Of a stretch of 64,000 nt of DNA, positions 11,210 to 44,653 are shown in pieces. This stretch comes from Ilumatobacteraceae bacterium (lineage in GTDB: Bacteria > Actinomycetota > Acidimicrobiia > Acidimicrobiales > Ilumatobacteraceae). Position numbers and translations under genes: made by a program. The notes beneath the pieces are model-generated. The model did not search any database. It saw nothing but the letters and a program-made list of their open reading frames with translations, and was not told the DNA's origin. Numbering within the stretch: position 1 is the first letter of the stretch; each line of letters opens with the position of its first letter. Location of the stretch: contig CBDDKF010000015.1 of assembly GCA_965230015.1 (NCBI GenBank), forward strand, positions 47,393 to 111,392, written 5' to 3'.

Positions 11210-13831
11210 ATGGCCGAGCGCCAGAATTCGACGAGCCGTGACCGTTCATCGCCGGCCGCTGCGCGGTGGAGCCCCGACCGCTGGGACCATCCGGACGAGC
11301 GCTACTTCCTGATCGACGATGAGGGGTGGGCGATTCCGTTCGAGCACGGCACCGGCCGCGCGCCGACGCTCGCAGCCCGTCGTCGGCTAACCCGCCGGCG
11401 CGTGTCGGTCGCCCGTTGGGCATCGTCGCTCGCCGCCGCGTTGGTGATCGCCATTGCCCCATCATCGGTGGTGTTCGGTGACGACGCAGGGCCCACCGAC
11501 ATCGCCGGCACCCCGCTCGGGGCCCACGCCGAAACCACCGACACGGCACCCGTGCCCGCTCCGCAGTTCGACTCGGCTGGGCGCCAGGTGGTCAGGATCG
11601 CCGTGGTCGCCGATTCGTTCGGCGTCGGCGAGGGCGCCGAACGCTACGTCGGTGACGACGCCCGCCACATCTCCGAGGTTGGACCGGTACCGGCCGCGGT
11701 GGCGGGACTGATGGCGGCCAATCCCGACGTGGTGTTCGAGGTGGTGGTGGTCGGATCGTCGGGCGCGACCACACTCGACGTGTACGCGCCGCAAATGGAC
11801 GGAGACCGGGCGCGCAATCACGCGCAGATCTCGACGTTGCCCACCGACGTCGACATGGTCGTGGTGCAGCTCGGCGGCAACGACGCACAGTTCGGGCCGG
11901 TGGTCGGCGACTTCGCCTTCGACGACTATCCCGATGACGAGGCCGCCGAAGGCGTGCTGCGCGATCACGGGTCGCTCGATGTGACCGAGCCGGTCGGTGC
12001 CCTGGATGCCGCCGAACAGATCCGTGAGGCTGACGCGAGCGGCGACCCACCAACACCGCCCGCCTCGCTTGCCGCGCGGATCGAGATGGTGATCGGCGAC
12101 CTACGCGAGGTGGTCGGCGACGTTCCCATCGTGGTCAACTCGTACCCCCTGGCTGTCGACGACCAGCTCATCGGCGACGACGAGCCGTTCGACGACGGGG
12201 CGATGATGGACCCGCCCGAGCTGCGGCAGATGGAGGTGCTCGGCACGCGGGTCAACGAACAACAACGAGTCGGCGCGCTGCGCGCGGGCGCCACATGGGT
12301 CGACCAATCGACGGTGCTCGAGGGCCACGAGCTGTACTCCGAAGATCCATACGTTCGCGATCTGCTGTTCCCGGCCGACCGCGAGCTCGACCGGCAAGAA
12401 GCGGCGCACCCCAACGCCGACGGCGCGATGGCGCAAGCTGGCCGCCTCGCACCGGTACTTGCCGAGCGCCTCGGCTTGGAACCACCCGGCGACGGGCCGT
12501 ACGACCTCGATGCCTACCCCGTGGAACCGATCGTGCCGCCGACGCCAACCTACGAGGGCTGGCCGTGGAACCGAGAGATGGTGCCGCCCGAGCGCATCGA
12601 ACTGCCCCCGCGCTTCGACGAACAGCCGGCGCCAGAGGTGTCGCCGACCGCGCCCAACGCACCCACGACGCCGGATGCTGCGCCAGCGGCGCCCACGATC
12701 AACGCCGCAACCGACGACCCGCCGAGCCAACCCGACGCGCCATCTGCTCCGCCCCCGCCAACCCCCGACCAGCCACCGCAACTACCGCCGCCTGCGGCAC
12801 CCGCCGACCCACCGCCCGACCCGGCACCCGCCGACCCACCGCCCGACCCGGCAGAGCCAGCTCCCCCGGCGCCACACCCGCCGGAACCAGCCGAGCCGGC
12901 CGCACCGCCGGCTGACGACCCGGCGCCGACGCCGATCGGCTTCGACCCGGGGAGTGGCGCGCCAGCCGACCCGCCACCAGGACCCTCGCCAGTGATGCCC
13001 GCACCCGAAGCGCCAGCGCCGAGCGGTCCCACAGGGCCCGCGGCGATCGACGTCGACGACGACATCCCAGAGCCGCCGACCGACGAACCATCGAACGACG
13101 ACTGGGACGGCCCCGACTCGACCGACGAAACGCCGGCGCCGCCATCGCCATCAACGTCACCACCATCAACGTCACCACCTGCATCCCCGTCAACGACACC
13201 ATTCCCGGCACCGGCGCCGGCGCCGCCGGTGTCCAACGACGTACCCGACGTGGTCAAGCCCGACGACGACGACCGCGACGACGATGACGACCGCGACGAC
13301 GATGACGACCGCGACGACGATGATGATGACGACGATCGCGACGACGAACGCGACGAACACACCAACAACGACACCCAGAGCCCCCCGCCGACGTCGAACC
13401 AGCCACCGACCGTGCACGACGAGCCGCCGCAGGCGCCGTCGCCTCCGACGGTCGACTCGTCGAGCGGATGGTCGGCCAGCGACGATGACGACGGTGGGTA
13501 CGACCCGCCGTCCGTACCCGAACCACCCTCACGACCCGACCCGCCGTCCGCACCGGAGCCGCCCTCACGACCCGAGCCCCCGTCCGCACCGGAGCCACCC
13601 TCACGACCCGAGCCGCCGTCCGCATCCGAACCGCCCTCACCGCCGGCACGACCGGACCCGCCATCGCGACCGGACCCACCGTCACCACCATCACCACCGG
13701 ATCCGCCATCGCCACCGGATCCGCCGGCCGCTCCGGACGACGACTGGACGAGCGAGTGGGACCACGACGGCGACTGGGATCCCAACCCGTCGCCCAGCTC
13801 GAATCCGTTCGACGGATGGTTCGGCGTCTGA
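11210..13831 (+). CDS. Membrane-anchored/secreted SGNH (GDSL-like) hydrolase with a ~450-aa Pro-rich, poly-acidic low-complexity C-terminal region
   Basis: Hydrophobic anchor WASSLAAALVIAIAP. SGNH block I IAVVADSFGVGEG, block III VVVQLGGNDAQF, block V EAAHPNADG. Then PAPxDPPP stretches, DDDRDDDDDRDDDDDRDDDDDDDDRDDERDEH, and PPSxPEPPSRPE repeats. Confidence 0.7.
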   Translation: MAERQNSTSRDRSSPAAARWSPDRWDHPDERYFLIDDEGWAIPFEHGTGRAPTLAARRRLTRRRVSVARWASSLAAALVIAIAPSSVVFGDDAGPTDIAGTPLGAHAETTDTAPVPAPQFDSAGRQVVRIAVVADSFGVGEGAERYVGDDARHISEVGPVPAAVAGLMAANPDVVFEVVVVGSSGATTLDVYAPQMDGDRARNHAQISTLPTDVDMVVVQLGGNDAQFGPVVGDFAFDDYPDDEAAEGVLRDHGSLDVTEPVGALDAAEQIREADASGDPPTPPASLAARIEMVIGDLREVVGDVPIVVNSYPLAVDDQLIGDDEPFDDGAMMDPPELRQMEVLGTRVNEQQRVGALRAGATWVDQSTVLEGHELYSEDPYVRDLLFPADRELDRQEAAHPNADGAMAQAGRLAPVLAERLGLEPPGDGPYDLDAYPVEPIVPPTPTYEGWPWNREMVPPERIELPPRFDEQPAPEVSPTAPNAPTTPDAAPAAPTINAATDDPPSQPDAPSAPPPPTPDQPPQLPPPAAPADPPPDPAPADPPPDPAEPAPPAPHPPEPAEPAAPPADDPAPTPIGFDPGSGAPADPPPGPSPVMPAPEAPAPSGPTGPAAIDVDDDIPEPPTDEPSNDDWDGPDSTDETPAPPSPSTSPPSTSPPASPSTTPFPAPAPAPPVSNDVPDVVKPDDDDRDDDDDRDDDDDRDDDDDDDDRDDERDEHTNNDTQSPPPTSNQPPTVHDEPPQAPSPPTVDSSSGWSASDDDDGGYDPPSVPEPPSRPDPPSAPEPPSRPEPPSAPEPPSRPEPPSASEPPSPPARPDPPSRPDPPSPPSPPDPPSPPDPPAAPDDDWTSEWDHDGDWDPNPSPSSNPFDGWFGV
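13271..13324 (+). repeat. 3 x 18-bp tandem repeat (GACCGCGACGACGATGAC) encoding DRDDDD units
   Basis: Read directly. Two perfect copies plus one with a single change, inside the SGNH hydrolase gene. Confidence 0.85.
13505..13612 (+). repeat. 3 x 36-bp tandem repeat encoding PPS(V/A)PEPPSRP(D/E)
   Basis: In-frame 12-aa units read directly. Degenerate copies continue to about 13740. Confidence 0.85.
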
Positions 13832-14341
13832 TCAGCCGCGCTCGACCACGCCGGCGGCCCCGAGCGGATCGCGAACGAGCGTCATCAGCGACATACCGAG
13901 CCCATACGTGTGCACCCGTGCAGGCACCTCCACTCGGATGAAGCATCCCTCGGGCAGATCGAGTTCACCGTGCCCGGTGATCGAGCCGAGCCTGCCGGCA
14001 GCGACGAGGGTCGTGATCTCGGGGCCTTCAGCATCGAGCAACTCCGCGCGACCTTGGAACTGCACAGCCGAGGGTGGAGCACCAACCGGTACGCGGCGGA
14101 TCGGCACCACTACAGCGGCGTACGGATTCGCCGCCACGTTGCGTGCCTTGCGGCTCGTCCGCAGCGTGCTCACGTAGAGCGCGTCGTCGACGTATTCGTA
14201 CAGCACGCCGGCGACGTGCGGGCGACCGGCATTCGACGTGGTGGCCAGCGTGGCATACGACCGCTTGGCGATGGCCCGCATCACCGCTGCGGCGTCGGGG
14301 CGATGGAGGGTTGCTGACTGGGGAACAGTAGTTGTTGACAT
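13832..14341 (-). CDS. Pyridoxamine 5'-phosphate oxidase-like (FMN/F420-binding split-barrel) family protein
   Basis: YATLATTSNAGRPHVAGVLY…LYVSTLRTSRKARNVAANP is typical of the PNPOx-like fold. Its stop abuts the stop of the convergent SGNH gene (TGA-TCA). Confidence 0.65.
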   Translation of the reverse strand: MSTTTVPQSATLHRPDAAAVMRAIAKRSYATLATTSNAGRPHVAGVLYEYVDDALYVSTLRTSRKARNVAANPYAAVVVPIRRVPVGAPPSAVQFQGRAELLDAEGPEITTLVAAGRLGSITGHGELDLPEGCFIRVEVPARVHTYGLGMSLMTLVRDPLGAAGVVERG

Positions 14342-25250: not shown

Positions 25251-26387
25251 GTGGGAGGCGTGATCCTCGACACGCTCGACATCAACACCGACACGTTCTT
25301 CGCCGGAACCGGCTGGCAGATCAAGCCCGAAGGAGCGTGCAAGGGCGAAGTGTGCGTCCCGCTGCCCGACGGTTTCTCGCTCGAGTACGCCGCGCAGCGA
25401 CTGGGCATGGCCGTGGTGGCCGACGAACCGTCGGGTCGTTGGGCGCTGGGCCCGGAGTCGCTCAATGGTCAAGCCCTCGTCACCGCCGAGGCGCCGGAGC
25501 TGGTACTCGACGACATCGATGGCCACGAGTTCCGCCTGTCGTCGCTGCGTGGCAAGAAGGTGGTGCTCGTCGCGTGGGCGCCGTATTGAGGTTGCCGCTA
25601 TGACCTGCCCGGGTGGCAGGCACTCCACGAAGAGCTGAGCCCGCAGGGCGTCGAGATCGTCACCGTGTCGCTCGAACTGAGCGGTCCAGAGGTGTCACGC
25701 CCGTTCATCGACGCGGCGTCGCCGACGCACCCGTCGTTGCTCGACCCGACACATCAGCTGGGTGCGTTGTTCGGTGTGGTCAACATCCCGAACGTGATCT
25801 GGATCGACGAGCAAGGAACGATCGTGCGGCCCGCCGAGCCCGGGTTCCCTGGCGGCGACCACTACCCCGACTGGCTGCGCAGCTACCTCGATGAACGCGA
25901 CGCAGCGGCGGAATCGAAGGCGAAAGAAATCGAAGCGACCGATCCGGAGCTCGCGGCGAAGATGCGCGGCGGACAGGATCAACAGTCGTACGCCGATGCG
26001 ATCCGCGACTGGGCGACCAACGGTGCCGACAGCCGCTTCGCCTTGTCGCCCGACGAGGTGATCGCGGCGTCGCAACCACGTCCTGCTGCCGTGTCGGAAG
26101 CCGCCGCGCACTTCGAGCTCGCCAACGACCTGTGGCGCAGCGACCAACGAGACGCGGCGATCCCCCACTTCAACGCCGCGCATCGGCTGCAACCCGACAA
26201 CTGGACCTACAAGCGCCAAGCGTGGTCGCTCGTCGGCAACGAACGCGCCGGCGGCGGCGAACTCGGTCGGTTCAACCAGGGTCCGCTCCCCGGCGAAGAG
26301 GACGACTGGCCGTTCGAGGGCAACTTCGCCGACGAAGCCGGCAGCACCCCGGCTGGCGACTACTACCCCAAGACCCTCGACGTCTGA
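25251..26387 (+). CDS. Thioredoxin-fold (TlpA/ResA/redoxin-like) protein with an in-frame TGA at 25587-25589 at the redox-active position (candidate selenoprotein, motif W-A-P-Y-U-G-C)
   Basis: ORFs 25251-25589 and 25665-26387 are in the same frame. Read through, the sequence is LRGKKVVLVAWAPY-TGA-GCRYDLPGWQALHEELSPQGVEIVTVSLE…NIPNVIWIDEQGTIV, a continuous redoxin fold with the TGA where the first CxxC-type Cys is expected. Confidence 0.75.
25604..25620 (+). other. Candidate bacterial SECIS hairpin CCUGCC-CGGGU-GGCAGG, 14 nt downstream of the in-frame UGA
   Basis: 6-bp GC stem and 5-nt loop with G at loop positions 2-4, read directly. Confidence 0.5.
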
Positions 26388-26394: not shown

Positions 26395-27270
26395 TCACGG
26401 GCGCGACGGGAAGATCCCCACCGCGCAGATCGTGTAGGTCAACCCGTTCGGCGCAGCCGCGCGCAGGTCCGGTACGGCAAACACCGTCATTGCATCACCG
26501 CCGTAGAGCGTTCCGAGCAGCGCGTACAGCGCCTGGTAGCTGTTGATCGGGAGCAGCTGTCCGTTCGCCAGGACTTGTCCGTGCGAGGTCGTTCCCGCGG
26601 TCAGGATGATCTCTCCGAGCGTGCATTCGCCGCCAGAACCAGCGGCGGCCACCTCGGTATTCGTCCCGAACACGTCGGCGCCTGGACCCGGAGGTCCTGG
26701 GGGGCCAGCGGGGCCGGGGACACCAGCGGTCGCCGACAACTCGCTGAGCGACGATCCCGAGTAGAAGCCGACCACGTCGGCCAACACGTTGACGGTGCCG
26801 TTCTGGTTGAACAGGGTGATCTGGCCGTCGGTCGACAACTTGACATCGACCTTGTTCGGCGTGGGCGATTGGCCCGGCAACCAGTTCAGGCTCGACACGG
26901 TGGGCACCTCGGTCACGTCCGACGGGTAGATGCGTAGGTTCGACTGCGCGGTCGGATCGGTGATGGTCACGTTCATCGCGACGGCGATGGCCGACGACGG
27001 GATCGAACAGTTGCCGACATCGCCGGTCACCTGCTGCACGTGGACGTTCGACTCGCCCGCGGCCAACGGTGTCTTCTTGTCGCCGTCGGGCTCGGCACCC
27101 GGCCGGAAGTCGAACAGGCGGCACGGCTCGATCGGGAACAGGGTGGCATCCTCGTCGCCGGGAGCGGCCCCCGCCGACCACGGCTCGACGACGAGCAGCG
27201 CGCACACCAGCGCCAACACTCCGGTACTCGCCATCCAGGCGATGCTCGGGATACGGGAAAGACGGTCCAT
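26395..27270 (-). CDS. Secreted protein: conserved N-terminal domain (paralogous to the two genes at 28.9-31.8 kb) + short collagen-like GPx run + C-terminal phage tail-collar-like domain
   Basis: Signal/anchor IAWMASTGVLALVCALLVV. The N-domain runs …AVAMNVTITDPTAQSNLRIYPSD…PNKVDVKLSTDGQITLFNQNGTVNVLADVVGFYS. Then GVPGPAGPPGPPGPG, and a tail-collar-like C-terminus GEIILTAG…LANGQLLPINSYQALYALLGTLYGGD…FAVPDLR. Start at ATG 27270. Confidence 0.7.
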   Translation of the reverse strand: MDRLSRIPSIAWMASTGVLALVCALLVVEPWSAGAAPGDEDATLFPIEPCRLFDFRPGAEPDGDKKTPLAAGESNVHVQQVTGDVGNCSIPSSAIAVAMNVTITDPTAQSNLRIYPSDVTEVPTVSSLNWLPGQSPTPNKVDVKLSTDGQITLFNQNGTVNVLADVVGFYSGSSLSELSATAGVPGPAGPPGPPGPGADVFGTNTEVAAAGSGGECTLGEIILTAGTTSHGQVLANGQLLPINSYQALYALLGTLYGGDAMTVFAVPDLRAAAPNGLTYTICAVGIFPSRP

Positions 27271-27390
27271 GGTCGACTCCTCCAGTACGGACAGCCGGAC
27301 CCCACGCCGGCTGTCGTCGAGCGACAGCCTGTCACGCCACACACCACCCCCGAACCAGCTCCGGTCCTGATCCACCCGCTCGCCGAAAAA

Positions 27391-27433
27391 CCGGGGATTT
27401 CATGCGCCTGGCGCATGATGTCGCGAACAGAAC
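27391..27433 (+). repeat. 43-nt repeat element, copy a (CCGGGGATT-palindrome-CGCGAACAGAAC)
   Basis: CCGGGGATTTCATGCGCCTGGCGCATGATGTCGCGAACAGAAC. The internal perfect palindrome TCATGCGCC-T-GGCGCATGA is at 27400-27418. The element ends 41 nt upstream of ATG 27474. Confidence 0.8.
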
Positions 27434-27473
27434 GGGGGGTTGTCCGGTGACCGTGCGGTGCCGATACAGATGT

Positions 27474-28472
27474 ATGGGAGATCGCACAAGCGGGCGAGTC
27501 GGCGCGGTGCTGGTTGCTGCCGCGGCGCTGATGATCTCGGTTGTCGCAGTCGCCGCACCGACACGTGTTGACGGTCCAGCGAGCGTGACCGAACGAGCGG
27601 TGCGCCTCGGCGTGCAGGGTGGACCGACGATCGCTGGTTGTCCAGTGTTCCCGTCGGACAACGCCTGGAACACACCGATCGACGGCGCTCCGCTCCATCC
27701 GCGCAGCGACTCGATGATCGCCACGATCCACGACAACGGTGGCGACTTCCTGCATCCTGACTTCGGCGAGAACCCCAACTACGGGATTCCGTTCGTGGTG
27801 GTCCCCGAGTCGCAGACACCGGTGCCGATCACCTACGACGCCTACGGCAGCGAGAGCGATCCGGGCCCCTTTCCCATCCCGCTCGACGCGCCCATCGAAG
27901 GAGAGCCGGGCGCAACGAGCGGGGATCGGCACGTCATCGCCGTGCAACGCGGCACATGCGAACTGTTCGAGCTGTACGTCGCTCGACCCTCGAGCACTGG
28001 ATGGACCGCCGCGTCTGGCGCACGGTTCAACCTCCGGTCCAACGATCTCCGCCCACTCGGTTGGACCAGTGCTGACGCTGCGGGCCTCCCGATCTTCCCC
28101 GGACTGGTCCGCTACGAGGAGGTCGCCGCGGGCGAGATCCGCCATGCGATCCGCGTGACCTTCAGTCGCACCCAACGCGGCTACATCCTCCCGGCGACGC
28201 ACTTCGCGTCGAACGACACCAACCCCGATCTGCCACCGATGGGGCTGCGCCTACGGCTCAAGTCGAGCTACGACATAGACCAGCTCACCGGCCAGGCACG
28301 GGTGATCGCCACGGCAATGCAGCGCTACGGGTTGATCGTGGCCGACAACGGATCGAACTGGTACTTCCAAGGAGCCCCGAGCCCCGGTTGGGACGACGAC
28401 GACCTCAACCAGCTGAAGAGCGTGCCCGGCACCGCGTTCGAGGTGGTCGATACCGGGCCAGTGCGTCGCTAA
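27474..28472 (+). CDS. Secreted hypothetical protein (332 aa)
   Basis: Signal-like N-terminus RVGAVLVAAAALMISVVAVAAP. The rest is coding-like with no motif I can name. ATG 27474 is chosen within the longer ORF 27069-28472. Confidence 0.55.
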   Translation: MGDRTSGRVGAVLVAAAALMISVVAVAAPTRVDGPASVTERAVRLGVQGGPTIAGCPVFPSDNAWNTPIDGAPLHPRSDSMIATIHDNGGDFLHPDFGENPNYGIPFVVVPESQTPVPITYDAYGSESDPGPFPIPLDAPIEGEPGATSGDRHVIAVQRGTCELFELYVARPSSTGWTAASGARFNLRSNDLRPLGWTSADAAGLPIFPGLVRYEEVAAGEIRHAIRVTFSRTQRGYILPATHFASNDTNPDLPPMGLRLRLKSSYDIDQLTGQARVIATAMQRYGLIVADNGSNWYFQGAPSPGWDDDDLNQLKSVPGTAFEVVDTGPVRR

Positions 28473-28918
28473 CCGTGCCCCTCAGCTGGTCGGCGCGGCG
28501 GGAACAGTCGCACCACGAGGTACACCACCACGAACGGCAACCCGAAGCGAAAGGCCGTGACGAGCAAGGTCAGCGCGAAGTCCTGACCTGAGCCGATCAC
28601 GTCGGCAACTTCGACCTCACGACCGTCGGTGAATACGCACGCCGCAGGTTGACCACCGGTGGTGAAGCTGCCGTCGCCCTGCTGAATTGAGGCCACGTCG
28701 CCCTCCCGTCCGCACAACGGTTCGTAGACCACCCTGTTCACGACCCACGTCGCGCCGAGCACGATCGGCACGTACGCGATCACGAAGAAGCCGAGAATCC
28801 AGATCGCACGTCGAGCACTCGGATGGGCGCCACCGCCTCCCGAGCCGCTTGCTGCAGCGACTCCCTCGGCCTCGGCCCGCTCGTCGGCGTCGAGGCCCTC
28901 GTACGGATCGTTGCTCAC
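28469..28918 (-). CDS. Small membrane protein (149 aa, two predicted TM helices), translationally coupled to the upstream fibre-protein gene
   Basis: GTG 28918 overlaps the upstream TGA (GTGA). Hydrophobic segments are IWILGFFVIAYVPIVLGATWVV and FALTLLVTAFRFGLPFVVVYLVV. Confidence 0.55.
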   Translation of the reverse strand: MSNDPYEGLDADERAEAEGVAAASGSGGGGAHPSARRAIWILGFFVIAYVPIVLGATWVVNRVVYEPLCGREGDVASIQQGDGSFTTGGQPAACVFTDGREVEVADVIGSGQDFALTLLVTAFRFGLPFVVVYLVVRLFPPRRPAEGHG

Positions 28919-30417
28919 AGCGGACCCCCAGGGCCTTCGCCACAGACCCGAGCCACGTTGGCCACCGAGCACGTGACACCGTCGCCACCGGCGATCGACT
29001 CGTTCCCACCGTTGGCCTCGTTCAACAACCCGCCAGCGACCGCCGAGTTCTGAGCCGAGGCCGTGTTGTTCGAACCACCGACTACCGACGACGCGGTCCC
29101 GGTGGCCTGATTGGCATTGCCACCAGACACCGACGCGCTCTCGCCCGAGGCCACGCTGAAGTTGCCGCCAGACACCGACGCGTAGTCCCCGGCTGCCGTG
29201 TTGTGATCGCCGCCCACTACCGATGACTGTTGGCCACTGGCGATGTTGCTATTGCCACCAGACACCGATGCACCGCGCCCGGTAGCGGCGTTTCCGATCC
29301 CACCTGACACGGTTGCATGTTCAGCCGACGCGGCGTTGAAGGAGCCGCCAACCACGGCAGCTCCGGACTGCGATGCTTCGTTGTTGACGCCCCCGAACAC
29401 CGCGGCAAACAGACCAGACGCGGCATTGTTGCGACCACCAGCGATCGACGAGAGCGCATCGCCTGCGGTGTTGCCAAACCCACCGGCAACGGTCGCACCA
29501 TCTCCGGACGCCGCATTCGCCACCCCACCAACGACACTCGCATACGGCCCGCTGACCGTGTTCCCTGAGCCGCCGAGCAGACCCGAGAAGCTGGTCCAGT
29601 CGTGGTCGAAGCCGACCACGAGGTTGTGGCTGCCACTGCGCGTTTCAGGTGTGCCCGGGTCCTCGTTGTAGCCAATCATTAGATTTCCGACGCCATTGCA
29701 CGCCTCGAAGCCGATTGCGTTGCACTCGGTGTTGTTGCTGCCGTCGACGACCTGCACATTGACACCGCTGAAGCGGACCGTGCGGTGGCCCTCGACATCG
29801 AGCACGGTGACGTCGGCGAGCTTCGCTTCGAGCGCCGCGATCCTCGAGTCTTGTTCGGCGAGTCGGGTGTGGAGTTCGCTGAGGCTGGCCGTGGAGTAGT
29901 AGCCGACCACATCACCCACCACCGACACCTGACCGTTCTGGTTGAACAACTTGATCGCCCCCGACGGCGACAACGACACATCCACCTTGTTCGGAAACGG
30001 CGCCTGACCCGCCGAGAAGTTCAAGTTGGAGATCAACGGCACCTCGGTCAGATCCGCCGGAAACAACCGCAGATTCGACTGCGCCGTCGGACCCACCGCA
30101 GTGACATTCATCGCCACCCCCACCGCATCGCCCGGGATCGCCAACTCCCCCACACACTCACCAACACCACCGGTGATCTGCTGCACAAACACCTCACCAG
30201 CACCCAACGGCTCAGACCGCGGACCCACCTGATTCGGCGCCGGCCGATAATCGAACGCTCGACACCCCGCCGTCGGCACAAACGTCGCATCCGAATCACC
30301 CGGCGCGGCATCCACCCGCCACGCCGCCAACAACGCAACGAGTGCGGCGATCCCAGAAGCCACGACGAGCCCGATCAACAGCCGTCGAACGCCGACGGTC
30401 GAGACCGCCGCGCCCAT
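28915..30417 (-). CDS. Secreted/anchored fibre-like protein B: N-terminal conserved domain + coiled-coil neck + 15-residue SVSGGxxNxAxGxxS beta-roll repeats (YadA-head/tail-fibre-like)
   Basis: ATG 30417 shares one base with the stop of the upstream paralog. Anchor LLIGLVVASGIAALVALLAA. Neck LSELHTRLAEQDSRIAALEAKLADV. There are more than 12 repeats such as ASVSGGNSNIASGQQ / SSVVGGDHNTAAGDY / ASVSGGNANQATGTA. The Cys-containing C-terminus is GGDGVTCS…ARVCGEGPGGPL. Confidence 0.7.
   Translation of the reverse strand: MGAAVSTVGVRRLLIGLVVASGIAALVALLAAWRVDAAPGDSDATFVPTAGCRAFDYRPAPNQVGPRSEPLGAGEVFVQQITGGVGECVGELAIPGDAVGVAMNVTAVGPTAQSNLRLFPADLTEVPLISNLNFSAGQAPFPNKVDVSLSPSGAIKLFNQNGQVSVVGDVVGYYSTASLSELHTRLAEQDSRIAALEAKLADVTVLDVEGHRTVRFSGVNVQVVDGSNNTECNAIGFEACNGVGNLMIGYNEDPGTPETRSGSHNLVVGFDHDWTSFSGLLGGSGNTVSGPYASVVGGVANAASGDGATVAGGFGNTAGDALSSIAGGRNNAASGLFAAVFGGVNNEASQSGAAVVGGSFNAASAEHATVSGGIGNAATGRGASVSGGNSNIASGQQSSVVGGDHNTAAGDYASVSGGNFSVASGESASVSGGNANQATGTASSVVGGSNNTASAQNSAVAGGLLNEANGGNESIAGGDGVTCSVANVARVCGEGPGGPL
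29864..30332. repeat. 469-bp direct repeat, copy 1 (1 mismatch versus 31276-31744)
   Basis: Constant offset of 1412 bp, shown by identical ORF-track entries (29912-30157 = 31324-31569; 30026-30232 = 31438-31644). The single mismatch is at 30307/31719. Covers the N-terminal domain coding region of fibre gene B. Confidence 0.9.
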
Positions 30418-31826
30418 CACAACGGCCCTCCGAGCCCGTCGCCGCACACGCGGGCACCCAGGGCGAAGCTGCACGTGACGCCGTCGCCACCGGCGACCGA
30501 GTCGTTCTCGCCGGTTGCCTGGTTCATGAATCCACCGGACACCGAGGTGCGCTCACCGCCGGCTGTGTTGTTGGCACCACCGGAGACCGACGATGCGGTG
30601 TTGACCGCGTCGTTGTTCGATCCACCCGACACCGACGCTCCGGTGCTCGTCGCCTCGTTGTTCAGGCCGCCGGACACCGAGGAATGCACACCTGACGCGG
30701 CGTTGCCATTCCCTCCCGACACCGAAGCGCCGTTGCTCCCAGCGGTGTTGTCACGTCCGCCGCTCACCGACGACCAAAAGGCGTTCGCCTCGTTGTCGCG
30801 ACCTCCCGAGATCGACGACGCCTGCGACGTGGCGGTGTTCCCGTAACCGCCGAGGACACTCGCGTAGCTCCCCTCGGTTGCGTTGACCGCGCCACCCGTC
30901 ACGACCGTTGCGGTGCCGCCGGCGGTGTTGCTGTTACCGCCGAGCACGTTCGAATACGGGCCCTCGATCGTGTTGAACGATCCGGCGACGATCCCGCCGT
31001 AGCTGACCCAGCTGTTATGAGTCCCGACCACGAGGTTGTGACTACCGCTTCGCACAGCGGGCAGGTTCGCGTCTTCGTTGTAGCCGATGATCAGGTTGCC
31101 AACACTTGTGCAGCTCTCCGGGAAGGTTCCGCCACACGGCGTGGATCCCCTTCCATCGACGACTTGCACGTTTACTCCCGAGAACCGGAGCGTGTCGATG
31201 CCGTCGACCTCGAGTCGGCTGACACCTTCGAGCCGGCCGAGCAAGGTGTCGAGCTCGGCCTCCACAGCGTTGAGCCGGGTGTGGAGTTCGCTGAGGCTGG
31301 CCGTGGAGTAGTAGCCGACCACATCACCCACCACCGACACCTGACCGTTCTGGTTGAACAACTTGATCGCCCCCGACGGCGACAACGACACATCCACCTT
31401 GTTCGGAAACGGCGCCTGACCCGCCGAGAAGTTCAAGTTGGAGATCAACGGCACCTCGGTCAGATCCGCCGGAAACAACCGCAGATTCGACTGCGCCGTC
31501 GGACCCACCGCAGTGACATTCATCGCCACCCCCACCGCATCGCCCGGGATCGCCAACTCCCCCACACACTCACCAACACCACCGGTGATCTGCTGCACAA
31601 ACACCTCACCAGCACCCAACGGCTCAGACCGCGGACCCACCTGATTCGGCGCCGGCCGATAATCGAACGCTCGACACCCCGCCGTCGGCACAAACGTCGC
31701 ATCCGAATCACCCGGCGCCGCATCCACCCGCCACGCCGCCAACACGACCGCCGCAACAACGGCCCCGATCATCGCTGCGGTGACCAACCAGACCACCGAC
31801 CGCACTCGAACTACTGCTGCGGACAT
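30417..31826 (-). CDS. Secreted/anchored fibre-like protein A (paralog of 28915-30417)
   Basis: ATG 31826 is preceded by GGAGGGA. Anchor VVWLVTAAMIGAVVAAVVLAA. The N-domain is identical to paralog B. Neck LSELHTRLNAVEAELDTLLGRLEG. Repeats include SSISGGRDNEANAFW / SSVSGGRDNTAGSNG / ASVSGGNGNAASGVH. The C-terminus is GGDGVTCSFALGARVCGDGLGGPL. Confidence 0.7.
   Translation of the reverse strand: MSAAVVRVRSVVWLVTAAMIGAVVAAVVLAAWRVDAAPGDSDATFVPTAGCRAFDYRPAPNQVGPRSEPLGAGEVFVQQITGGVGECVGELAIPGDAVGVAMNVTAVGPTAQSNLRLFPADLTEVPLISNLNFSAGQAPFPNKVDVSLSPSGAIKLFNQNGQVSVVGDVVGYYSTASLSELHTRLNAVEAELDTLLGRLEGVSRLEVDGIDTLRFSGVNVQVVDGRGSTPCGGTFPESCTSVGNLIIGYNEDANLPAVRSGSHNLVVGTHNSWVSYGGIVAGSFNTIEGPYSNVLGGNSNTAGGTATVVTGGAVNATEGSYASVLGGYGNTATSQASSISGGRDNEANAFWSSVSGGRDNTAGSNGASVSGGNGNAASGVHSSVSGGLNNEATSTGASVSGGSNNDAVNTASSVSGGANNTAGGERTSVSGGFMNQATGENDSVAGGDGVTCSFALGARVCGDGLGGPL
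31276..31744. repeat. 469-bp direct repeat, copy 2
   Basis: See copy 1. Covers the N-terminal domain coding region of fibre gene A. Confidence 0.9.
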
Positions 31827-31962: not shown

Positions 31963-34587
31963 GTGGGGGTCATCGGTCGAGACGAGGAGCTGACGAGGGC
32001 ATTGGCCGCGCTGACGGCAGCACCCGGATGTCTCGTGCTCACCGGAACAGCAGGTGTCGGCAAGACCCACCTCGCTGGCGCGATCGGGGCGCAACTCGCC
32101 TCCCAAGGCCACTCCGTGTCGCGTGTGGTCGGCACGCGCACCGCAGCATCGGTGCCCCTCGGCGCACTCGCGCCATTGCTGCCGACGATGCCGGCAAACC
32201 CCGACATCGAGAACGCGGCTGCGGGTGCCGGCACGCTGATGATGCTGCAACATGCGATCGGCAGCTTGACCGGCGACAACGACGGCCACCGGCGCGTGCT
32301 GATCATCGACGACGCGCAGCACCTCGACCCGACGTCGGCGATCGTCGTGTCACAGCTCAGCGTCGACGGCCAGGTCACCACCATCCTCACGATGCGCAGC
32401 GGCGACGCCACGCCCGAGCCGATCACCGCGCTCAGCAGGAGCGGCTCGACGATACGCATCGACCTCGATCCGCTCGACGAAGTCCAGAGCGGCACACTCG
32501 CCGCAGCGCTGCTCGGCGGCCCCCTCGACGGGGGCGCATCCCACCGCCTGTACTCGCTCGGGTTGGGAAACCCGCTGTACCTCGAGGAACTCATTGCCAG
32601 CGCACGACGCGACCATGCGCTCGTCCAATCCGACGGCGTATGGCGTCTGGTCGACGAGTGGCGGCCCGCCATCCACGGTGGGCGCGTCGCCGACCTCGTG
32701 CGCGCCCGACTCGACGAGCTCACCGACGACGAACGCGAGCGCCTGGAACTGCTGGCGCTGTCGGAGCCCGTGGACCTCGACCGCGCCGAACGCTTGGTCG
32801 AGCCGGCCACGCTGGAGGCGCTGGAGATGGCCGACCTCATCGCCATCAAAGACGGGCGCGTCGAGATCCGTCACCCACTCGTCGGCGAGGTGGTGCGGTC
32901 GAGCATCGCCGTCACCCGCCGCAAGCGGCTCTACGCGACGTTGGCCGCACACTCCGATCCAGACACCGACGACGACATCGGGATGATGCAGCACGCGCTG
33001 TGGGTGCTCGAGTCCGAAGTCGTCGACCGCGAACTCTTCGCGGCGGCCACCAAGTTCGCCCGGTTCGCCGACAACTACGCGCTCGGGCTGCGCTTCGCCG
33101 AGGCGATCGTGGCCAATGGCGAACACCTCGAGGCGACCGTGCTGGCCGGCGAGATGGCCTATCAACTGGGCGACTTCGCGGCCAGCGAAACGTGGCTGCG
33201 GCGAGCGGCCGATATCGCCAGCGGTCCCGACGAGGAAGCGCTGGTGGTGATCAATCAACTCTCGACGGTGTACTGGGGCCTCGCCGACTGGGAGGCATGC
33301 ACCGCCCTGGTCGACGACTTCCGCCGCCGGCATCCGCAGAGCGATTGGGCCGACGACCTCGAAGGGCTGGTTGCCAGCCAGTGCATGTTCAACGGCGAAC
33401 CCGACGCCGCGCTGGCACGACTCGATGGTCTGCGTCGACGCAGCGACCAACGCGCACGCGTGGAGGTTGCGTTCGTCACCGCGCCAGCACTGGGTCAGAA
33501 AGGGCAGGTCGGTGAGGCACTGGAGATCGCCGCGCGCGGCTTCGCCGAGCACGCGCAGCTCGGCGAACAGGTCGGCCTGGGCGCATCGGGCAATCACGTG
33601 TTGACGACGTTGAGCGTGCAGTCGAATGGCGGGCTGCTCGCAGAGGCGGAAGAGCTGGGTGCGGCGATGTACGACGCCGTCCGCCGCTCGTGGCAGCCCC
33701 TGGCGATCGTGATCGTGTGCTACACCAACGGCCGCACTGCGCTGGCCCAGGGCAGACCGGCCACGGCAGCCCGGTGGTTCCGCGAAGGCGCGGCGAACGC
33801 CCGCTCGGCGCTGTATCGCGATCCGCTGCGATGGTGTCTCGGTGGCCTCGCCCTGGCGCTGGCCCGAGTCGGCGACGACGAAGGTGGCAACGATGCGTTG
33901 GCGGAAGCCGCCGACCTCGACGGGCTCGCCCGCCTTGCCGACATCGACATGCAGCGCGCCACCGCCATGTTGCGCGTGAACCGAGGCGACGTGAGCGGTG
34001 CGGCGGCCGAGTTGGTCGCTCACGCTGCTCGGTGGCGAGCTGCCGGCCATGCGATCAACGAAGCTCAGGCCCTCCACGAGTTGATCTCGATCGGTGAACC
34101 GCAGCTGGCCAGCGAACGGCTCGCCGCGCTGGCCCAGCAGAGCGACGCCGCCTCGATCACCGTTCCCGCGGCCCATGCGGCAGCCGCGTCGGCCGGCGAT
34201 GTCGATGCACTCGAGGCAGTCGCTGCCGAGTACGACGCATACGGCGCGACGTTCGCCGCGGCCGAGGCGCTCGCCGCGGCTGCCCACCACGCCCGAGCGG
34301 CCGGCGAGGTGCGCCGGGCGACGGGACTCACCGCGCGATCGCGGGCACTGGCCGACGCATGCGAGGGATCGATCAACCCGGTGCTGATGACCGGCGACGA
34401 GCCGACGCCGTTGACCAAGCGCGAACGGGAGATCGCCTTGCTGGCCGCCAACGGGATGCGCAGCAAGCAGATCGCCGAGACGCTCACCGTGTCGGTGCGC
34501 ACCGTCGACAACCACCTGCAGAGCGTGTACACCAAACTCGGCATCAACGACCGCTCCGAACTCGCCCACGCGCTCACTCCATCCTGA
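31963..34587 (+). CDS. LAL-type (large ATP-binding LuxR family, MalT-like) transcriptional regulator
   Basis: N-terminal Walker A LTGTAGVGKTHLAG, Walker B VLIIDDAQHLD, and a long helical/TPR-like middle. C-terminal LuxR HTH is LTKREREIALLAANGMRSKQIAETLTVSVRTVDNHLQSVYTKLGI. GTG start. Confidence 0.85.
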   Translation: MGVIGRDEELTRALAALTAAPGCLVLTGTAGVGKTHLAGAIGAQLASQGHSVSRVVGTRTAASVPLGALAPLLPTMPANPDIENAAAGAGTLMMLQHAIGSLTGDNDGHRRVLIIDDAQHLDPTSAIVVSQLSVDGQVTTILTMRSGDATPEPITALSRSGSTIRIDLDPLDEVQSGTLAAALLGGPLDGGASHRLYSLGLGNPLYLEELIASARRDHALVQSDGVWRLVDEWRPAIHGGRVADLVRARLDELTDDERERLELLALSEPVDLDRAERLVEPATLEALEMADLIAIKDGRVEIRHPLVGEVVRSSIAVTRRKRLYATLAAHSDPDTDDDIGMMQHALWVLESEVVDRELFAAATKFARFADNYALGLRFAEAIVANGEHLEATVLAGEMAYQLGDFAASETWLRRAADIASGPDEEALVVINQLSTVYWGLADWEACTALVDDFRRRHPQSDWADDLEGLVASQCMFNGEPDAALARLDGLRRRSDQRARVEVAFVTAPALGQKGQVGEALEIAARGFAEHAQLGEQVGLGASGNHVLTTLSVQSNGGLLAEAEELGAAMYDAVRRSWQPLAIVIVCYTNGRTALAQGRPATAARWFREGAANARSALYRDPLRWCLGGLALALARVGDDEGGNDALAEAADLDGLARLADIDMQRATAMLRVNRGDVSGAAAELVAHAARWRAAGHAINEAQALHELISIGEPQLASERLAALAQQSDAASITVPAAHAAAASAGDVDALEAVAAEYDAYGATFAAAEALAAAAHHARAAGEVRRATGLTARSRALADACEGSINPVLMTGDEPTPLTKREREIALLAANGMRSKQIAETLTVSVRTVDNHLQSVYTKLGINDRSELAHALTPS

Positions 34588-40789: not shown

Positions 40790-41097
40790 GAAGCCGGCTC
40801 GATTCGTGCGGGCTCGCTTCGTGCCGTTTCGACCTGAGCCATCATCGAGTCGTCGAGCCCCAGCTCGTCGTCGAGGAGCCCGACGTCGCGCATCATCTTC
40901 AACGTCTCGAGCGCCGACGCCTTGTCGAGCAGCGTGATCGCAAAGCCGGCGTGAATGATCGTGTAGTCGCCGACGTCGGCGTCGGGGACGTAAGCCAAGC
41001 AGATGTCCTTTTGCACGCCGCCGAAATCGACGGTGGCCATCTTGGTCCCGCGTTCATCGCGGATGTCGGTGACCTTCCCGGGGACTCCGAGACACAT
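40786..41097 (-). CDS. hypC: [NiFe]-hydrogenase assembly chaperone HypC/HupF family
   Basis: N-terminal MCLGVPGKV with the essential Cys2. 103 aa. Confidence 0.9.
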
Positions 41098-43487
41098 CAG
41101 GTGCTCCCTTCATCGACCACTCGCGTGCACGAGCGATCGAGCGTTGTGGCCGCGGCAATCGCCGCCTGGCCGAGTGACAACCCACCATCGTTCGGCGGGA
41201 CGAGGCGGTGGGTGAGCACCTCGAACCCGGTGAGTCGCTCGTGCGTCAAACGGGCGAGCAACGCGTTCTGGAACACCCCGCCGGTCAGCGCGACCGGGAG
41301 ATCGCCGGCACACCGGGCCGCCAGCCGGGCGACCACATCGGCCACCGCGTGGTGGAAGGCCGCGGCGAGATCGGCGCGATCGACACCGCGGCGACACCCC
41401 TCGACGATGCCGACCAGCACTGGCCGCGGGTCGATCACGAAGGACGAACCGGGTTCGTGCCGAAGATCGAACCGCAGTGAAACGCGCCCGGCGTCTCCCC
41501 GCTCGGCAAGGTGTTCGAGTTCGATCGCCGCCTGTGCCTCGTAGCTGATGCGGTGGCGTACGTCGAGCAGCGAACTGACGACGTCGAAGAGGCGGCCCAT
41601 GCTGGTGGTCGGCGTGCACCCGATGTTGCGCTCGACCTGCTGGGGCACGATGCGCCGCTCGACGTCGTCGCAGGCCTGCATGGCAGGATCGCCAGCCTCG
41701 ATGGAGATACCGAGCGCGGTGAGATAGGCCAGCGCCAGCCGGCACGGGTTGCGCACCGTTTCGTCGCCGCCGGGCAGCGGCAGCGGTTGCAGATGGGCGA
41801 CGCGCTCGAAACGTCGGTAGCCGGCGCGCAGGATCTCGCCGCCCCAGATCTCGGGTGCGCCGTCGGCGCCGATGCCGTACCCCGTGCCGTCGAAGGCGAT
41901 ACCCAACACGTCGGCGTCGAGGCCGACGCCGTGCTCGACCATCACCGCCGCGACGTGGGCGTGATGGTGTTGCACGTCGACCTGTGTGGCGGCGAGTTGG
42001 TCTGCGTTGTCGAGCGCCCACCGACGGGTGAGGTAGCCCGGGTGACAATCGACGCCGAGCACCTCAGGTGTGACTCGATACATCGTGGTGAACGCGTCGA
42101 CGCTGGCGGCGAACGCATCGAGCGTGGCCAGGTTCTCCATGTCGCCGATGTGTTGGCCGACCCACGCATGACGACCCGAAGCCACACAGCAGGTGTTCTT
42201 CAATTCGCCGCCGACGCCGAGCACGGGCGGCGCCGTGAACGGCAGCGCGACCGGCACCGGCGCATACCCCCGAGCTCGCCGGATCGGCTGCACCTCGCCG
42301 TCGACCACGCGCACCACCGAGTCGTCGCAGGGCAACTCGATCGGCCGATCGTGCAGGCAAAATGCGTCGGCGAGATCGCCCAGCCGAGCGAGTGCTTCGT
42401 CGTCGCGGAAGCAGATCGGTTCACTCGACCGATTCCCCGACGTCATCACCAGGGCGACCGGTGGATCGACGTCGCCATCGGGCACCGGCGCGAACAACAA
42501 GTGGTGCAGCGGCGTGTAGGCGAGCATCACGCCGATCAGCGGGTTCCCGGGAGCGACGCCGTCAGCGATCGGGGCATCAGTACAGCGCGGCAACAACACG
42601 ATCGGCCGTGCGGCGCTCGTCAGGGCCTCGGCGGCGATGTCGTCGACGTCGGCGACCACCCGCGCGGCGGCCAGGTCGGGGACCATCACGGCGAATGGCT
42701 TGTCGACACGTCCCTTGCGGCGACGCAGCTCGGCAACAGCGAGCGGATCACCTGCGTCGCACGCGAGGTGATACCCACCGAGCCCCTTCACCGCCACAAC
42801 CTGACTCGTGGCGAAGGCGCGGTGGACGGCGGCGAGGACCGCATCGGTTCCGCCCACGCGCACACCGGGCCGGGCGAACGTGAGCTGCGGTCCACATTCG
42901 GGGCAGGCCACCGGCTGAGCGTGATAGCGGCGATCGAGCGGGTCGGCGTACTCGTCGGCACACGCCGGACAGAGGTCGAAGTCGGCCATCGTGGTGGCCG
43001 GACGGTCGTAGGGCAGATCGCGAATGATCGTGAACCGGGGGCCACAGTTGGTGCAGTTGATGAAGGGGTACCGGTGGCGACGGTCAGCCGAGTCGAAGAG
43101 CTCGCTGAGGCAGTCGTCACAGGTCGCCACGTCGGGGGGAACGAGGGTGCGTGGACCATCGGTCGCGGCCGACTCGACGATGGTGAACGAGCTGTCGCCA
43201 CACCGGTCGACGTCGTGCACCACCACCTCGTCGATGCGCGCCAGCGGCGGCTGCTCGCGACGGAGCCGCGCGGCGAACTCGTCGAGCTGCACCGTTGCCC
43301 CTTCGATCTCGATGAACACGCCGTGCGCATCGTTGCCCACGTGGCCGACGAGACCGAGCTCGGTGGCCAGCGACCACACGAACGGACGAAAGCCGACTCC
43401 CTGCACGATGCCGGTCACCGTCAGTCGACGCCGCGCGGCCGACGCACCTAGGGGTGCACCGTGAGCTGCGACGTCGAGCAAACTCAC
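41097..43487 (-). CDS. hypF: Carbamoyltransferase HypF
   Basis: Acylphosphatase domain LTVTGIVQGVGFRPFV. Two zinc fingers, CDDCLSELFD…FINCTNCGPRFTI and CPACADEY…CPECGP, followed by YrdC- and Kae1-like parts. GTG 43487 overlaps the stop of the NHL gene (GTGA). Confidence 0.9.
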   Translation of the reverse strand: MSLLDVAAHGAPLGASAARRRLTVTGIVQGVGFRPFVWSLATELGLVGHVGNDAHGVFIEIEGATVQLDEFAARLRREQPPLARIDEVVVHDVDRCGDSSFTIVESAATDGPRTLVPPDVATCDDCLSELFDSADRRHRYPFINCTNCGPRFTIIRDLPYDRPATTMADFDLCPACADEYADPLDRRYHAQPVACPECGPQLTFARPGVRVGGTDAVLAAVHRAFATSQVVAVKGLGGYHLACDAGDPLAVAELRRRKGRVDKPFAVMVPDLAAARVVADVDDIAAEALTSAARPIVLLPRCTDAPIADGVAPGNPLIGVMLAYTPLHHLLFAPVPDGDVDPPVALVMTSGNRSSEPICFRDDEALARLGDLADAFCLHDRPIELPCDDSVVRVVDGEVQPIRRARGYAPVPVALPFTAPPVLGVGGELKNTCCVASGRHAWVGQHIGDMENLATLDAFAASVDAFTTMYRVTPEVLGVDCHPGYLTRRWALDNADQLAATQVDVQHHHAHVAAVMVEHGVGLDADVLGIAFDGTGYGIGADGAPEIWGGEILRAGYRRFERVAHLQPLPLPGGDETVRNPCRLALAYLTALGISIEAGDPAMQACDDVERRIVPQQVERNIGCTPTTSMGRLFDVVSSLLDVRHRISYEAQAAIELEHLAERGDAGRVSLRFDLRHEPGSSFVIDPRPVLVGIVEGCRRGVDRADLAAAFHHAVADVVARLAARCAGDLPVALTGGVFQNALLARLTHERLTGFEVLTHRLVPPNDGGLSLGQAAIAAATTLDRSCTRVVDEGST

Positions 43488-44653
43488 GACGCGCTCCACA
43501 CCATGACGCGGTTGTTGCCCGAGTCGGCGATCGCCAGGTGATCGGACGCGGCGTTGCCGCCGGCGCGGAACGACATGCCGTACGGCCAGCAACACGTGTC
43601 GTGCTCGACGCGATCCCAACGGTTCTCGCCGTTGCCGTTCTCGTCGGGCTGACCGAGCACCCGGTCGAACCCGGCGCCGGACGGCTGGGCGGCAAATGTG
43701 GTGGCCGGTTCGTCGATCACCGCGACCCGGTTGTTCGAGGTGTCACCGACGAACAGGCGCCCGTCGGGCGCGTGGGCGATCGCGTACGGGAAGCGCAGCG
43801 CGGCGCGCCCCTGGGGCCGGTACGGGCTCTCGAACGCGCTGGTGAAGTCGGGCTGACCGAACACCACGTCGGCAGGACGATCGGCGTCGACGGCGCCGCG
43901 CCACCCGAGCACTCGATGATTGCCGGCATCGGCCACAAAGAACAGGTCGCCCGACGACGCGAGCGCATGCGGCCAGCGCATCGAGTCGGCGGCCACGTCG
44001 TCGTCGCGGTTCTCACCGCGGGCGGTGAGGTTCGGTTGACCGAGCACGACGTCGGCGCCCTGCCCCGGCTCCGGGAGACCGTCGCGCCAGCCGAGCACCC
44101 GGCGGTTGCCGGTGTCAGCCACCCAGAACACACCGTCGATCTCGGCGATGCCAAACGGCCAATAGAAACGCTGCGGCCCACACCCCTCATCGGTGCCGTC
44201 GAGGCTGCGGGCCGGCTCCTGTCCGAGCACCGTTGGCGCGACACCCTGGATCGCCGCGTCGATGTCGTCCCACACCAACACCCGGTGATGCCACGCATCG
44301 GCCACGACGAACCGACCGTCGGCCGTCTCCACCATCCCGGTTGGCAGGTGGAACAGGTTGGGCCCCTCCGTGATCATGTCCGGCTGGCCGATCACATGAT
44401 CGGCATCCGCGTGATCCGCGTGGGGCACCGGCGTGTCCCACACGAGCAGTCGGTGGTTGCCGGTGTCGGCGGCGACCACTCGCTCGCCGGTGAGCAGCAC
44501 CGCACGCGGCGCGTACATCGTCGATGCACTCGGCGACGCGTCGGGCAGGGCCAAACCCATCGAACTCGGCCCGCCGAGCCAGCGCACCGGACGGTACGGC
44601 CCGTCGGCCGGCCACTGCGTGGCGCCAGCGGTCGACGTGAGGAGATCGGTCAC
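43484..44653 (-). CDS. NHL-repeat beta-propeller protein, hydrogenase-cluster accessory
   Basis: Six repeats of the type VADTGNHRLLVWD / VADAWHHRVLVWD / VADTGNRRVLGW / VADAGNHRVLGW / VGDTSNNRVAV / IADSGNNRVMVW. 4-nt overlaps on both sides. Confidence 0.8.
   Translation of the reverse strand: MTDLLTSTAGATQWPADGPYRPVRWLGGPSSMGLALPDASPSASTMYAPRAVLLTGERVVAADTGNHRLLVWDTPVPHADHADADHVIGQPDMITEGPNLFHLPTGMVETADGRFVVADAWHHRVLVWDDIDAAIQGVAPTVLGQEPARSLDGTDEGCGPQRFYWPFGIAEIDGVFWVADTGNRRVLGWRDGLPEPGQGADVVLGQPNLTARGENRDDDVAADSMRWPHALASSGDLFFVADAGNHRVLGWRGAVDADRPADVVFGQPDFTSAFESPYRPQGRAALRFPYAIAHAPDGRLFVGDTSNNRVAVIDEPATTFAAQPSGAGFDRVLGQPDENGNGENRWDRVEHDTCCWPYGMSFRAGGNAASDHLAIADSGNNRVMVWSAS

Follow-up and report, generated by a model that had tools for sequence, protein, structure and literature searches.

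Genes A, B and C, which lie close to one another on the minus strand of a 64,000-nucleotide stretch of DNA from an uncultured marine-type actinobacterium (Ilumatobacteraceae bacterium, contig CBDDKF010000015.1, positions 47,393 to 111,392; hereafter 'the window' denotes this whole stretch), encode modular, fibre-like proteins that share one N-terminal domain, here called the N-domain, and differ in their C-termini. On balance, we favour the reading that they belong to a lineage-specific family of Acidimicrobiia/Ilumatobacteraceae whose members are Sec-secreted homotrimeric surface spikes, built from a wall-proximal base, a trimerising stalk and swappable C-terminal tips, and diversified by recombination at module boundaries. 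The genes, with the two copies of a DNA tract shared by A and B, are:

30417-31826, minus strand: gene A, 469 amino acids (aa); signal peptide, N-domain, coiled-coil neck, junction, 11 x 15-aa UspA1-type beta-roll, Cys tail
28915-30417, minus strand: gene B, 500 aa; layout as in A, with 13 x 15-aa units; its start overlaps the stop of A
26395-27270, minus strand: gene C, 291 aa; signal peptide, N-domain, SLSEL, five G-X-Y triplets, Phage Tail Collar domain
31276-31744, minus strand: conversion tract, copy in A; 469 base pairs (bp), one mismatch against 29864-30332
29864-30332, minus strand: conversion tract, copy in B; 469 bp, partner of the copy in A

These open reading frames (ORFs) lie where a preliminary description of this DNA had put them, all on the minus strand, and its outline of modular secreted proteins with a shared N-domain and swapped C-termini of trimer type has held. 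The product of gene A is identical to the public protein P0028.

The A/B pair provides a clean example of conversion bounded by module edges. As first described, the two copies are identical over 443 bp (29864-30306 and 31276-31718, offset 1412 bp) and differ over the full 469 bp by a lone mismatch, at position 30307. In a codon alignment of A and B, in which the tract covers A residues 29-184, amino acid identity inside the tract was 100%, nucleotide identity was 99.6% and synonymous differences affected 2 of 156 conserved codons; outside the tract, the corresponding values were 50-79%, 56-69% and 86 of 163. Because the flanks share so little identity, a chance run of this length is excluded, and since selection at the protein level cannot erase synonymous differences, the pattern identifies the tract as a recent non-reciprocal exchange, that is the gene conversion that the preliminary description had proposed. 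The tract is bordered by the end of the signal peptide and the first turn of the neck (SELHTRL); the exchange copied exactly the N-domain module.

Between genomes, too, the N-domain module is conserved at the nucleotide level well above background. Its DNA is 91.4% and 96.1% identical to orthologs in two other metagenome-assembled genomes (MAGs; L003:9975-10395 and L040:2-229), whereas adjacent genes on those contigs are far more diverged (LuxR-type regulator 73.7%, two-transmembrane (2-TM) protein 78.7%, C-module of B 82-83%, ORF467 83.1%). The raised identity would fit pervasive concerted evolution or module exchange. A search for other conversion tracts among the paralogs returned just overlapping-frame artefacts and one internal repeat in locus L078, from short-read MAGs that cannot show such tracts.

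Species-representative genomes were scanned with the N-domain alignment, and the resulting loci were searched in six frames with a hidden Markov model (HMM). This survey yielded 110 N-domain ORFs in 79 loci, almost all of them in Acidimicrobiia/Ilumatobacteraceae MAGs, with about 35 loci from one MAG and about 17 from another; the window holds exactly three such ORFs. The C-termini that follow the coiled-coil or collagen stalk formed at least 15 unrelated clusters, including a Cys-containing beta domain of ~100 aa (n = 37), collagen that ends in an NHL propeller or otherwise (n = 12), a UspA1-type roll (n = 8), collagen with a collar (n = 2) and many singletons. Median N-domain identity was nearly the same for pairs with the same tip (57.9%) and with different tips (55.2%), unrelated tips occurred on N-domains that are 92% identical, and the nearest N-domain relatives of A (77-82%) bear four tip types. 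Since tip type is decoupled from N-domain relatedness in this way, the survey is direct evidence that tip modules are shuffled independently of it. The variable system suspected earlier is therefore present as a genome-wide multigene family of dozens of paralogs and not as cassettes at this locus: in the cross-strain comparison, the syntenic locus of a related MAG has the same architecture. Literature searches by motif and topic found no description of the N-domain or of the family, in agreement with the earlier remark that no described system fits.

Clustering of paralogs is common in other genomes, where arrays of four to five adjacent family members occur (L068:5284-14716, in MAG VAR_4_metabat_259, and L035:7146-11934). 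The L068 array consists of four genes with collagen stalks, whose tips include NHL propellers and a tip of 596 aa made of collagen plus Cys repeats.

Within gene A, the modules are arranged as follows:

31719-31826, minus strand: signal peptide, residues 1-36; predicted cleavage after RVDA, before APGD
31299-31718, minus strand: N-domain, residues 37-176, ~140 aa; predicted eight-strand beta-sandwich with an invariant Cys pair
31218-31298, minus strand: coiled-coil neck, residues 177-203, SLSELHTRLNAVEAELDTLLGRLEGV...
30501-30998, minus strand: beta-roll array, residues 277-442; 11 units of 15 aa
30420-30500, minus strand: C-terminal Cys tail, SVAGGDGVTCS...ARVCGDGLGGPL

The N-terminal segment, previously called an anchor, looks instead like a cleavable signal peptide. 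In A, it has two Arg in the n-region and a hydrophobic core of ~22 residues, and it ends in a W-x-x-x-A/APGD site (the slash marks the predicted cut) that is conserved family-wide, with small residues at -3 and -1 and an invariant mature N-terminus behind it. This pattern suggests cleavage by signal peptidase at W-x-x-x-A/APGD; if so, retention at the surface would be non-covalent.

The N-domain itself matched no model in Pfam, NCBIfam or PHROGs, and a sequence search of the PDB returned just chance matches to filovirus GP1 (E~0.1). An AlphaFold2 (AF2) model built from a 14-sequence alignment predicted an eight-strand beta-sandwich (pLDDT 91.2, pTM 0.84). Foldseek matches to this model were weak (TM <=0.57) and were mostly jelly-roll knobs of trimeric fibres and lectins; they included the Bd2133 tip, a phage cement protein, BclA, Pgp3, BC2L-C, CBM6/35 and some phage tail-fibre models. 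The modelled similarity appears to be one of fold class only, and we rejected the N-domain as a homolog of CBM6/35, TNF/C1q or the Bd2133 tip. Ten polar residues are invariant (R, D, R, N, T, S, N, N, K, D). The N-domain of C is diverged, with ~62% DNA and ~60% aa identity to that of A, and is recovered by the N-domain HMM at E=4e-69; together with the collar described below, this agrees with the earlier assignment of C as a third paralog.

More distant relatives place the N-domain in a much larger group. A word-indexed search found 27 close relatives, all from uncultured Actinomycetota, and an exhaustive search with the profile recovered 33,086 cluster representatives, including 9,317 at E<=1e-30. 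Profile homology and shared motifs put the N-domain in an unnamed 'RLLDTR...NVT...SNLN...DVVGY' beta-sandwich superfamily, whose motif set (RLLDTR...LNVTV...ASNLNF...PN.V.VK.G...DVVGW/YF) is seen in three-copy proteins. Among the best 150 matches, the domain occurs nearly always as three tandem copies, sometimes as 6 or 9, and mostly either follows the signal peptide directly or closes the C-terminus of the protein. A census of 70 proteins found fn3 (12), PKD, PD40, RCC1, M23 (2), CHAP (2), GH25 (1), subtilase, GH43 and GDSL lipase as partner domains, and public names of these proteins are either 'hypothetical' or taken from the partner. By these homologies, the N-domain of genes A, B and C is a single-copy offshoot of a superfamily that elsewhere is mostly three-copy on secreted enzymes.

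Behind the N-domain, A and B continue into a neck whose hydrophobic residues (positions 2, 5, 9, 12, 16, 19, 23 and 26) follow a 3-4 heptad pattern. A full-length AF2 model of mature A (pLDDT 83.8) contains a sandwich at the N-terminus, modelled with confidence, a helix spanning residues 143-162 and a beta-roll with a periodic strand pattern (pLDDT 95-97). The repeats, of which A has 11 and B has 13, are spaced by exactly 15 residues (45 bp), and both A/B indels comprise one whole unit. The head of Moraxella UspA1 (3pr7) was matched by A in phmmer (E=3e-18, with a large compositional-bias term), by a profile of 88 family members (E=1.9e-56 over ~150 residues; 3ntn followed at 2e-11 and 3ult at 8.6e-9) and by the A model in Foldseek, where it was the top PDB match (E=1.6e-6, 33% identity over 190 columns). 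Neither the 88-member profile nor Foldseek returned a YadA or Hia head, and the profile matched no further head of a trimeric autotransporter adhesin (TAA). The repeats are thus of TAA-head type, as the preliminary description had it, specifically of UspA1 and not of YadA type. B reached 27.1 bits against the PF21300 beta-roll model (cutoff 30) and several homologs exceeded the threshold; similarly, close homologs passed the PF18792 UspA1_rep cutoff, with A and B themselves below Pfam thresholds. These homologies assign the A/B repeats, at the level of the domain, to the UspA1-type left-handed beta-roll heads. The Cys tail that follows is 79% identical in aa between A and B, and an equivalent tail is found in P0030 and L002.

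The neck, the conserved 'RFSGVNVQVVDG...GNLIIGYNE...SGSHNLVVG' junction and the roll form a module with 927 matches in several phyla, in which the N-terminal position is held by SLH (P0040), CWB2 (P0031), collagen, TSP3, InlB B-repeats or a coiled coil alone. The complete A/B architecture is also present in P0030 and in the Ilumatobacter MAG protein P0049. UspA1-type heads, textbook parts of Gram-negative autotransporters, are therefore widespread outside type V secretion, and single-membrane bacteria mount them reversed, on N-terminal bases such as SLH, CWB2 or the N-domain. Neck-junction-roll proteins that have no autotransporter anchor (for example P0040, P0031, P0068 and P0098), some of which combine one SLH or CWB2 domain with an N-terminal coiled coil, seem to make up a widespread and apparently undescribed 'inverted' class of UspA1-head proteins.

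Gene C bears a different tip. Its Collar domain matched PF07484 at E=9.8e-16 (57.9 bits, cutoff 24) over profile positions 1-56 of 57, and weak matches to PHROG tail proteins were also obtained (E=7e-6). The preceding collagen-like run has five triplets (GVPGPAGPPGPPGPG) and did not match PF01391 at E<=0.1; paralogs elsewhere with long runs pass that model. When the C tip, the A tip and the N-domain were compared by tblastn with 50,697 phage genomes, no match was found. The phage-related module is, by profile similarity, the Collar domain of C only, and the earlier mention of phage-fibre-like modules holds to that extent and not beyond, given the lack of tblastn matches and a neighbourhood that is not prophage. 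A prophage or tailocin origin was rejected, as the non-fibre neighbours are metabolic (SDR, pyroglutamyl peptidase, patatin, ADH) and phages gave zero tblastn matches.

We compared these proteins with described surface systems. The TAA definition (PMC2942831) calls for an obligate homotrimer with an N-terminal head, a C-terminal stalk with anchor and an outer-membrane host. The order found here is signal peptide, N-domain, neck, head; A had no Pfam match at all and B no match to an anchor, and both end 24 residues past the last repeat. All close relatives are in Actinomycetota (Acidimicrobiia/Ilumatobacteraceae) MAGs, and Actinomycetota are monoderm. A and B as TAAs were accordingly rejected, having no beta-barrel anchor, a C-terminal head and an actinomycetotal host. 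To UspA1 of Moraxella catarrhalis (3pr7, PF18792) they are alike in their homologous 15-residue GG..N.A.G..S repeats and in the neck or coiled coil that adjoins the head; the UspA1 head is a trimer in its crystal structure, and by analogy a trimeric adhesive function would be expected of A and B. Unlike UspA1, they have no C-terminal beta-barrel translocator and come from a phylum with no outer membrane, their modules run in inverted order (base, stalk, C-terminal head) with a very short stalk, and they carry an extra Cys tail and the conserved junction, both absent from UspA1.

The Bdellovibrio MAT fibres comprise 21 paralogs in which an invariant N-terminal domain, whose ligand is unknown, lies next to the cell and is followed by a trimeric shaft and a swapped tip (PMC10769870). 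These shafts are long beta-helices, and an S74 chaperone-protease domain forms the end of many of the fibres (Caulton et al. 2024, PMC10769870). The family described here resembles those of Bdellovibrio bacteriovorus in being a multigene family (21 paralogs versus dozens per genome here) with a constant N-terminal domain and exchanged C-terminal tips, and among PDB folds the trimeric beta-sandwich tip of Bd2133 comes closest to the N-domain, although the match is weak (TMq 0.53). The family differs in that no sequence homology was detected, the shaft consists of a coiled coil or of collagen, the beta-sandwich forms the base and not the tip, and the host is a monoderm actinobacterium instead of a diderm predator. 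By analogy, the MAT fibres are the closest functional counterpart, of which the A/B/C family is not a member. For the base, the parallel lies in the SLH and CWB2 domains, which act as three-copy pseudo-trimers. Homologs of the A C-module bear one SLH (P0040) or CWB2 (P0031) where the N-domain sits, and the three-copy pseudo-trimers parallel the way in which the N-domain superfamily occurs in three copies; neither family matches the N-domain in sequence, and the predicted all-beta sandwich of the N-domain is another fold, so the analogy is one of position and copy number only. Gene C, in turn, ends in a Collar domain, as do phage short tail fibre/tail-collar proteins (PF07484, T4 gp12-type receptor-binding region), with collagen triplets before it; BclA-type proteins likewise set a trimeric C-terminal knob on a collagen stalk. 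Unlike the phage proteins, gene C has no phage context and its N-terminal domain is cellular, not a baseplate attachment; unlike collagen-like fibres such as BclA, it has a collagen run of only five triplets. As whole proteins, A, B and C fit no described system, although modular trimeric adhesin-like fibres are a known kind.

On the reading that we favour, each chain would consist of a signal peptide, one ~140-aa beta-sandwich N-domain, a heptad coiled-coil or collagen stalk and an interchangeable tip, and the signal peptide would probably be cut at the conserved site. To our knowledge, the heptad coiled coil, collagen, the UspA1 head and the collar are each obligate trimer formers where studied, and because all stalk and tip types present are of this kind, the proteins are most likely homotrimeric. 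Three N-domains may then join on the trimer axis, recreating the three-tandem-copy unit of the superfamily, and this unit could retain the protein non-covalently on the cell wall. The N-domain is proposed as the wall-proximal base because it is the invariant end, takes the SLH/CWB2 position in C-module homologs and decorates secreted enzymes that include peptidoglycan hydrolases. The invariant Cys pair in the N-domain and the conserved signal peptide count for secretion, and the trimeric jelly-roll knobs among the best, if weak, modelled fold matches of the N-domain for its role as base. The stalk would project the tip outward as the ligand-binding end, which in A and B would be the UspA1-type left-handed beta-roll head and in C the gp12-like tail-collar domain. 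Diversity would arise by recombination at module boundaries, as when the 469-bp conversion between A and B replaced exactly the N-domain module. Next to nothing is known about the surface biology of Ilumatobacteraceae, an abundant and mostly uncultured group of actinobacteria in water and soil; with dozens of tip-swapped spikes per genome, they could attach to particles, polysaccharides or partner cells.

Several points weigh against this proposal. Trimerisation and surface location are deduced from sequence and monomer models, and the junction (mature A residues ~180-260) was modelled poorly and at low confidence. The N-domain matched none of the known wall-binding families in Pfam or NCBIfam (SLH PF00395, CWB2 PF04122, LysM and others), and peptidoglycan hydrolases account for a minority of its partner domains (5 of 70). 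The stalk of A and B has just ~25 residues, which would make short spikes (by a rough estimate 15-20 nm) and not long fibres. Short-read polishing, if applied to the assembly, could have inflated the identity of the tract. The remaining points, the length of the N-terminal hydrophobic core and the presence of carbohydrate-binding modules among the fold matches, lead directly to other explanations.

A core of ~22 residues can span a membrane, and the N-terminus was initially read as an anchor; the segment might accordingly be an uncleaved type-II signal anchor, with the N-domain as a membrane-proximal spacer or oligomerisation domain and the proteins reaching only into or just through the wall. 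Pfam showed no sortase motif or known wall-binding domain, as this explanation would have it. We nevertheless consider it unlikely, as the conserved W-x-x-x-A/APGD site with its invariant mature N-terminus is typical of signal peptidase I cleavage, and in the wider superfamily secreted enzymes carry the domain, often at their very C-terminal end and hence remote from any membrane anchor. Alternatively, external glycans instead of the wall could be the ligand of the N-domain: the proteins would then be released, soluble lectin- or collectin-like trimers that are not attached to the cell and use the N-domain as a glycan-binding head, for example in particle or polysaccharide capture. Such a role is in line with the resemblance to CBM6, CBM35 and lectin jelly rolls, with invariant polar residues that could form a ligand site and with the absent anchor motif. 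It is improbable in view of the variable end, which bears distal binding tips known elsewhere (UspA1 head, tail collar, NHL propeller), of homologous C-modules paired with N-terminal SLH or CWB2 wall anchors, and of the conserved base with variable tips, which is the pattern of attached fibres (PMC10769870).

We give very little credence to A and B being ice-binding or antifreeze beta-roll proteins, in which the Ser/Thr/Asn-rich 15-residue roll would present a flat ice-binding face like that of the Lolium ice-recrystallisation-inhibition protein. The sub-threshold PF21300 match of B, the above-threshold matches of several homologs, the match of 3ult to the profile and the origin of some relatives in cold-environment MAGs are compatible with it; the UspA1 head match is far stronger, close homologs pass UspA1_rep, relatives come from many non-cold habitats, and the other tip types and gene C would be left unexplained. 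Just as little speaks for mis-assembly or short-read polishing as the source of the identical tract or the tandem duplication. Near-identical repeats can indeed be homogenised by multi-mapping short reads, but both copies lie in complete genes with unique, in-frame, diverged flanks, each with its own signal peptide and C-module, and the B-2TM-ORF467-C layout exists independently in L040. Moreover, the contigs of two independent short-read MAGs break within the orthologous N-domains, as expected for a real repeat: the L003 contig ends 393 bp into that of A, and the L040 contig begins with the last ~228 bp of that of B. For these reasons, an assembly artefact is unlikely.

A broader proposal is more tentative, and we regard it as possible though doubtful. 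The N-domain could define a very large new class of wall-retention modules, trimeric or pseudo-trimeric, in Actinomycetota and other bacteria, functionally equal to SLH/CWB2, with the Ilumatobacteraceae branch as a monoderm repertoire of inverted-TAA or MAT-like kind, that is dozens of tip-swapped spikes per genome whose bases are kept uniform by conversion. If this were true, the conversion-uniform bases would let every tip dock to the same wall ligand. The three-copy habit of the superfamily and the variant with a single copy plus a trimeriser yield a concrete, testable hypothesis on its function and quaternary structure.

The fibre-like genes are embedded in chromosomal, GC-rich DNA (65-71%), next to the following genes:

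31963-34587, plus strand: LAL/LuxR-type regulator with AAA_16 and GerE (Pfam), divergent from A
28469-28918, minus strand: 2-TM membrane protein, 149 aa; hydrophobic segments at residues ~38-60 and ~114-136
27474-28472, plus strand: secreted hypothetical protein (long ORF from 27069; likely start 27474) with a signal-peptide-like N-terminus

A and B are coupled through an overlapping stop and start, GTGATG (A stop TGA 30419-30417, B start ATG 30417-30415), and the stop TGA of B overlaps the GTG start of the 2-TM gene in a GTGA, which marks this gene, with its two hydrophobic segments, as translationally coupled to B; both couplings had been recognised before. Pfam, NCBIfam and PHROG searches with the 2-TM gene gave no match, and its ortholog was found solely at the syntenic locus L040. 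As it is absent beside other UspA1-type family members, the 2-TM gene was rejected as a family-wide partner.

The adjacent LAL/LuxR regulator that had been pointed out earlier is transcribed divergently, 136 bp upstream of A. Its protein of ~870 aa has the features of the LAL type (PF13191 E=3.6e-10, PF00196 E=1.1e-15), and the divergent arrangement with A is also kept in the related MAG P01_E01_bin.47. From this conserved divergent synteny, the sole basis for the link, the regulator probably controls the A-B-2TM operon. The hypothetical protein at 27474-28472 sits between the B/2-TM genes and C, has an ortholog at the same position in L040 (E=1e-217) and matched nothing in Pfam, NCBIfam or PHROG. 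Overall, the locus layout is kept in two related MAGs; the B-2TM-ORF467-C order recurs in MAG J06638_25 (L040), where the gene C ortholog shows 89% DNA identity.

Elsewhere in the window, after a 112-aa ORF ending in a redoxin-like motif (…KKVVLVAWAPY; 25251-25589, plus strand), another frame holds a 240-aa ORF that matched nothing in Pfam and is conserved in L040 (25665-26387, plus strand); these may be two separate genes, or a single gene with a frameshift or a wrongly called start. A GDSL-like lipase at 11210-13831 (plus strand) has a ~450-residue Pro-rich, acidic low-complexity tail (PPDP/PEPPS repeats, D runs), which explains the composition anomaly at 12001-14000 (GC 0.714, GC skew -0.167, AT skew +0.326). 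Finally, hydrogenase maturation genes unrelated to the fibre genes lie nearby, with HypF in the window (41097-43619, minus strand) and HypC, HypD and HypE-like genes on a contig of a related MAG (L001:1-2310).

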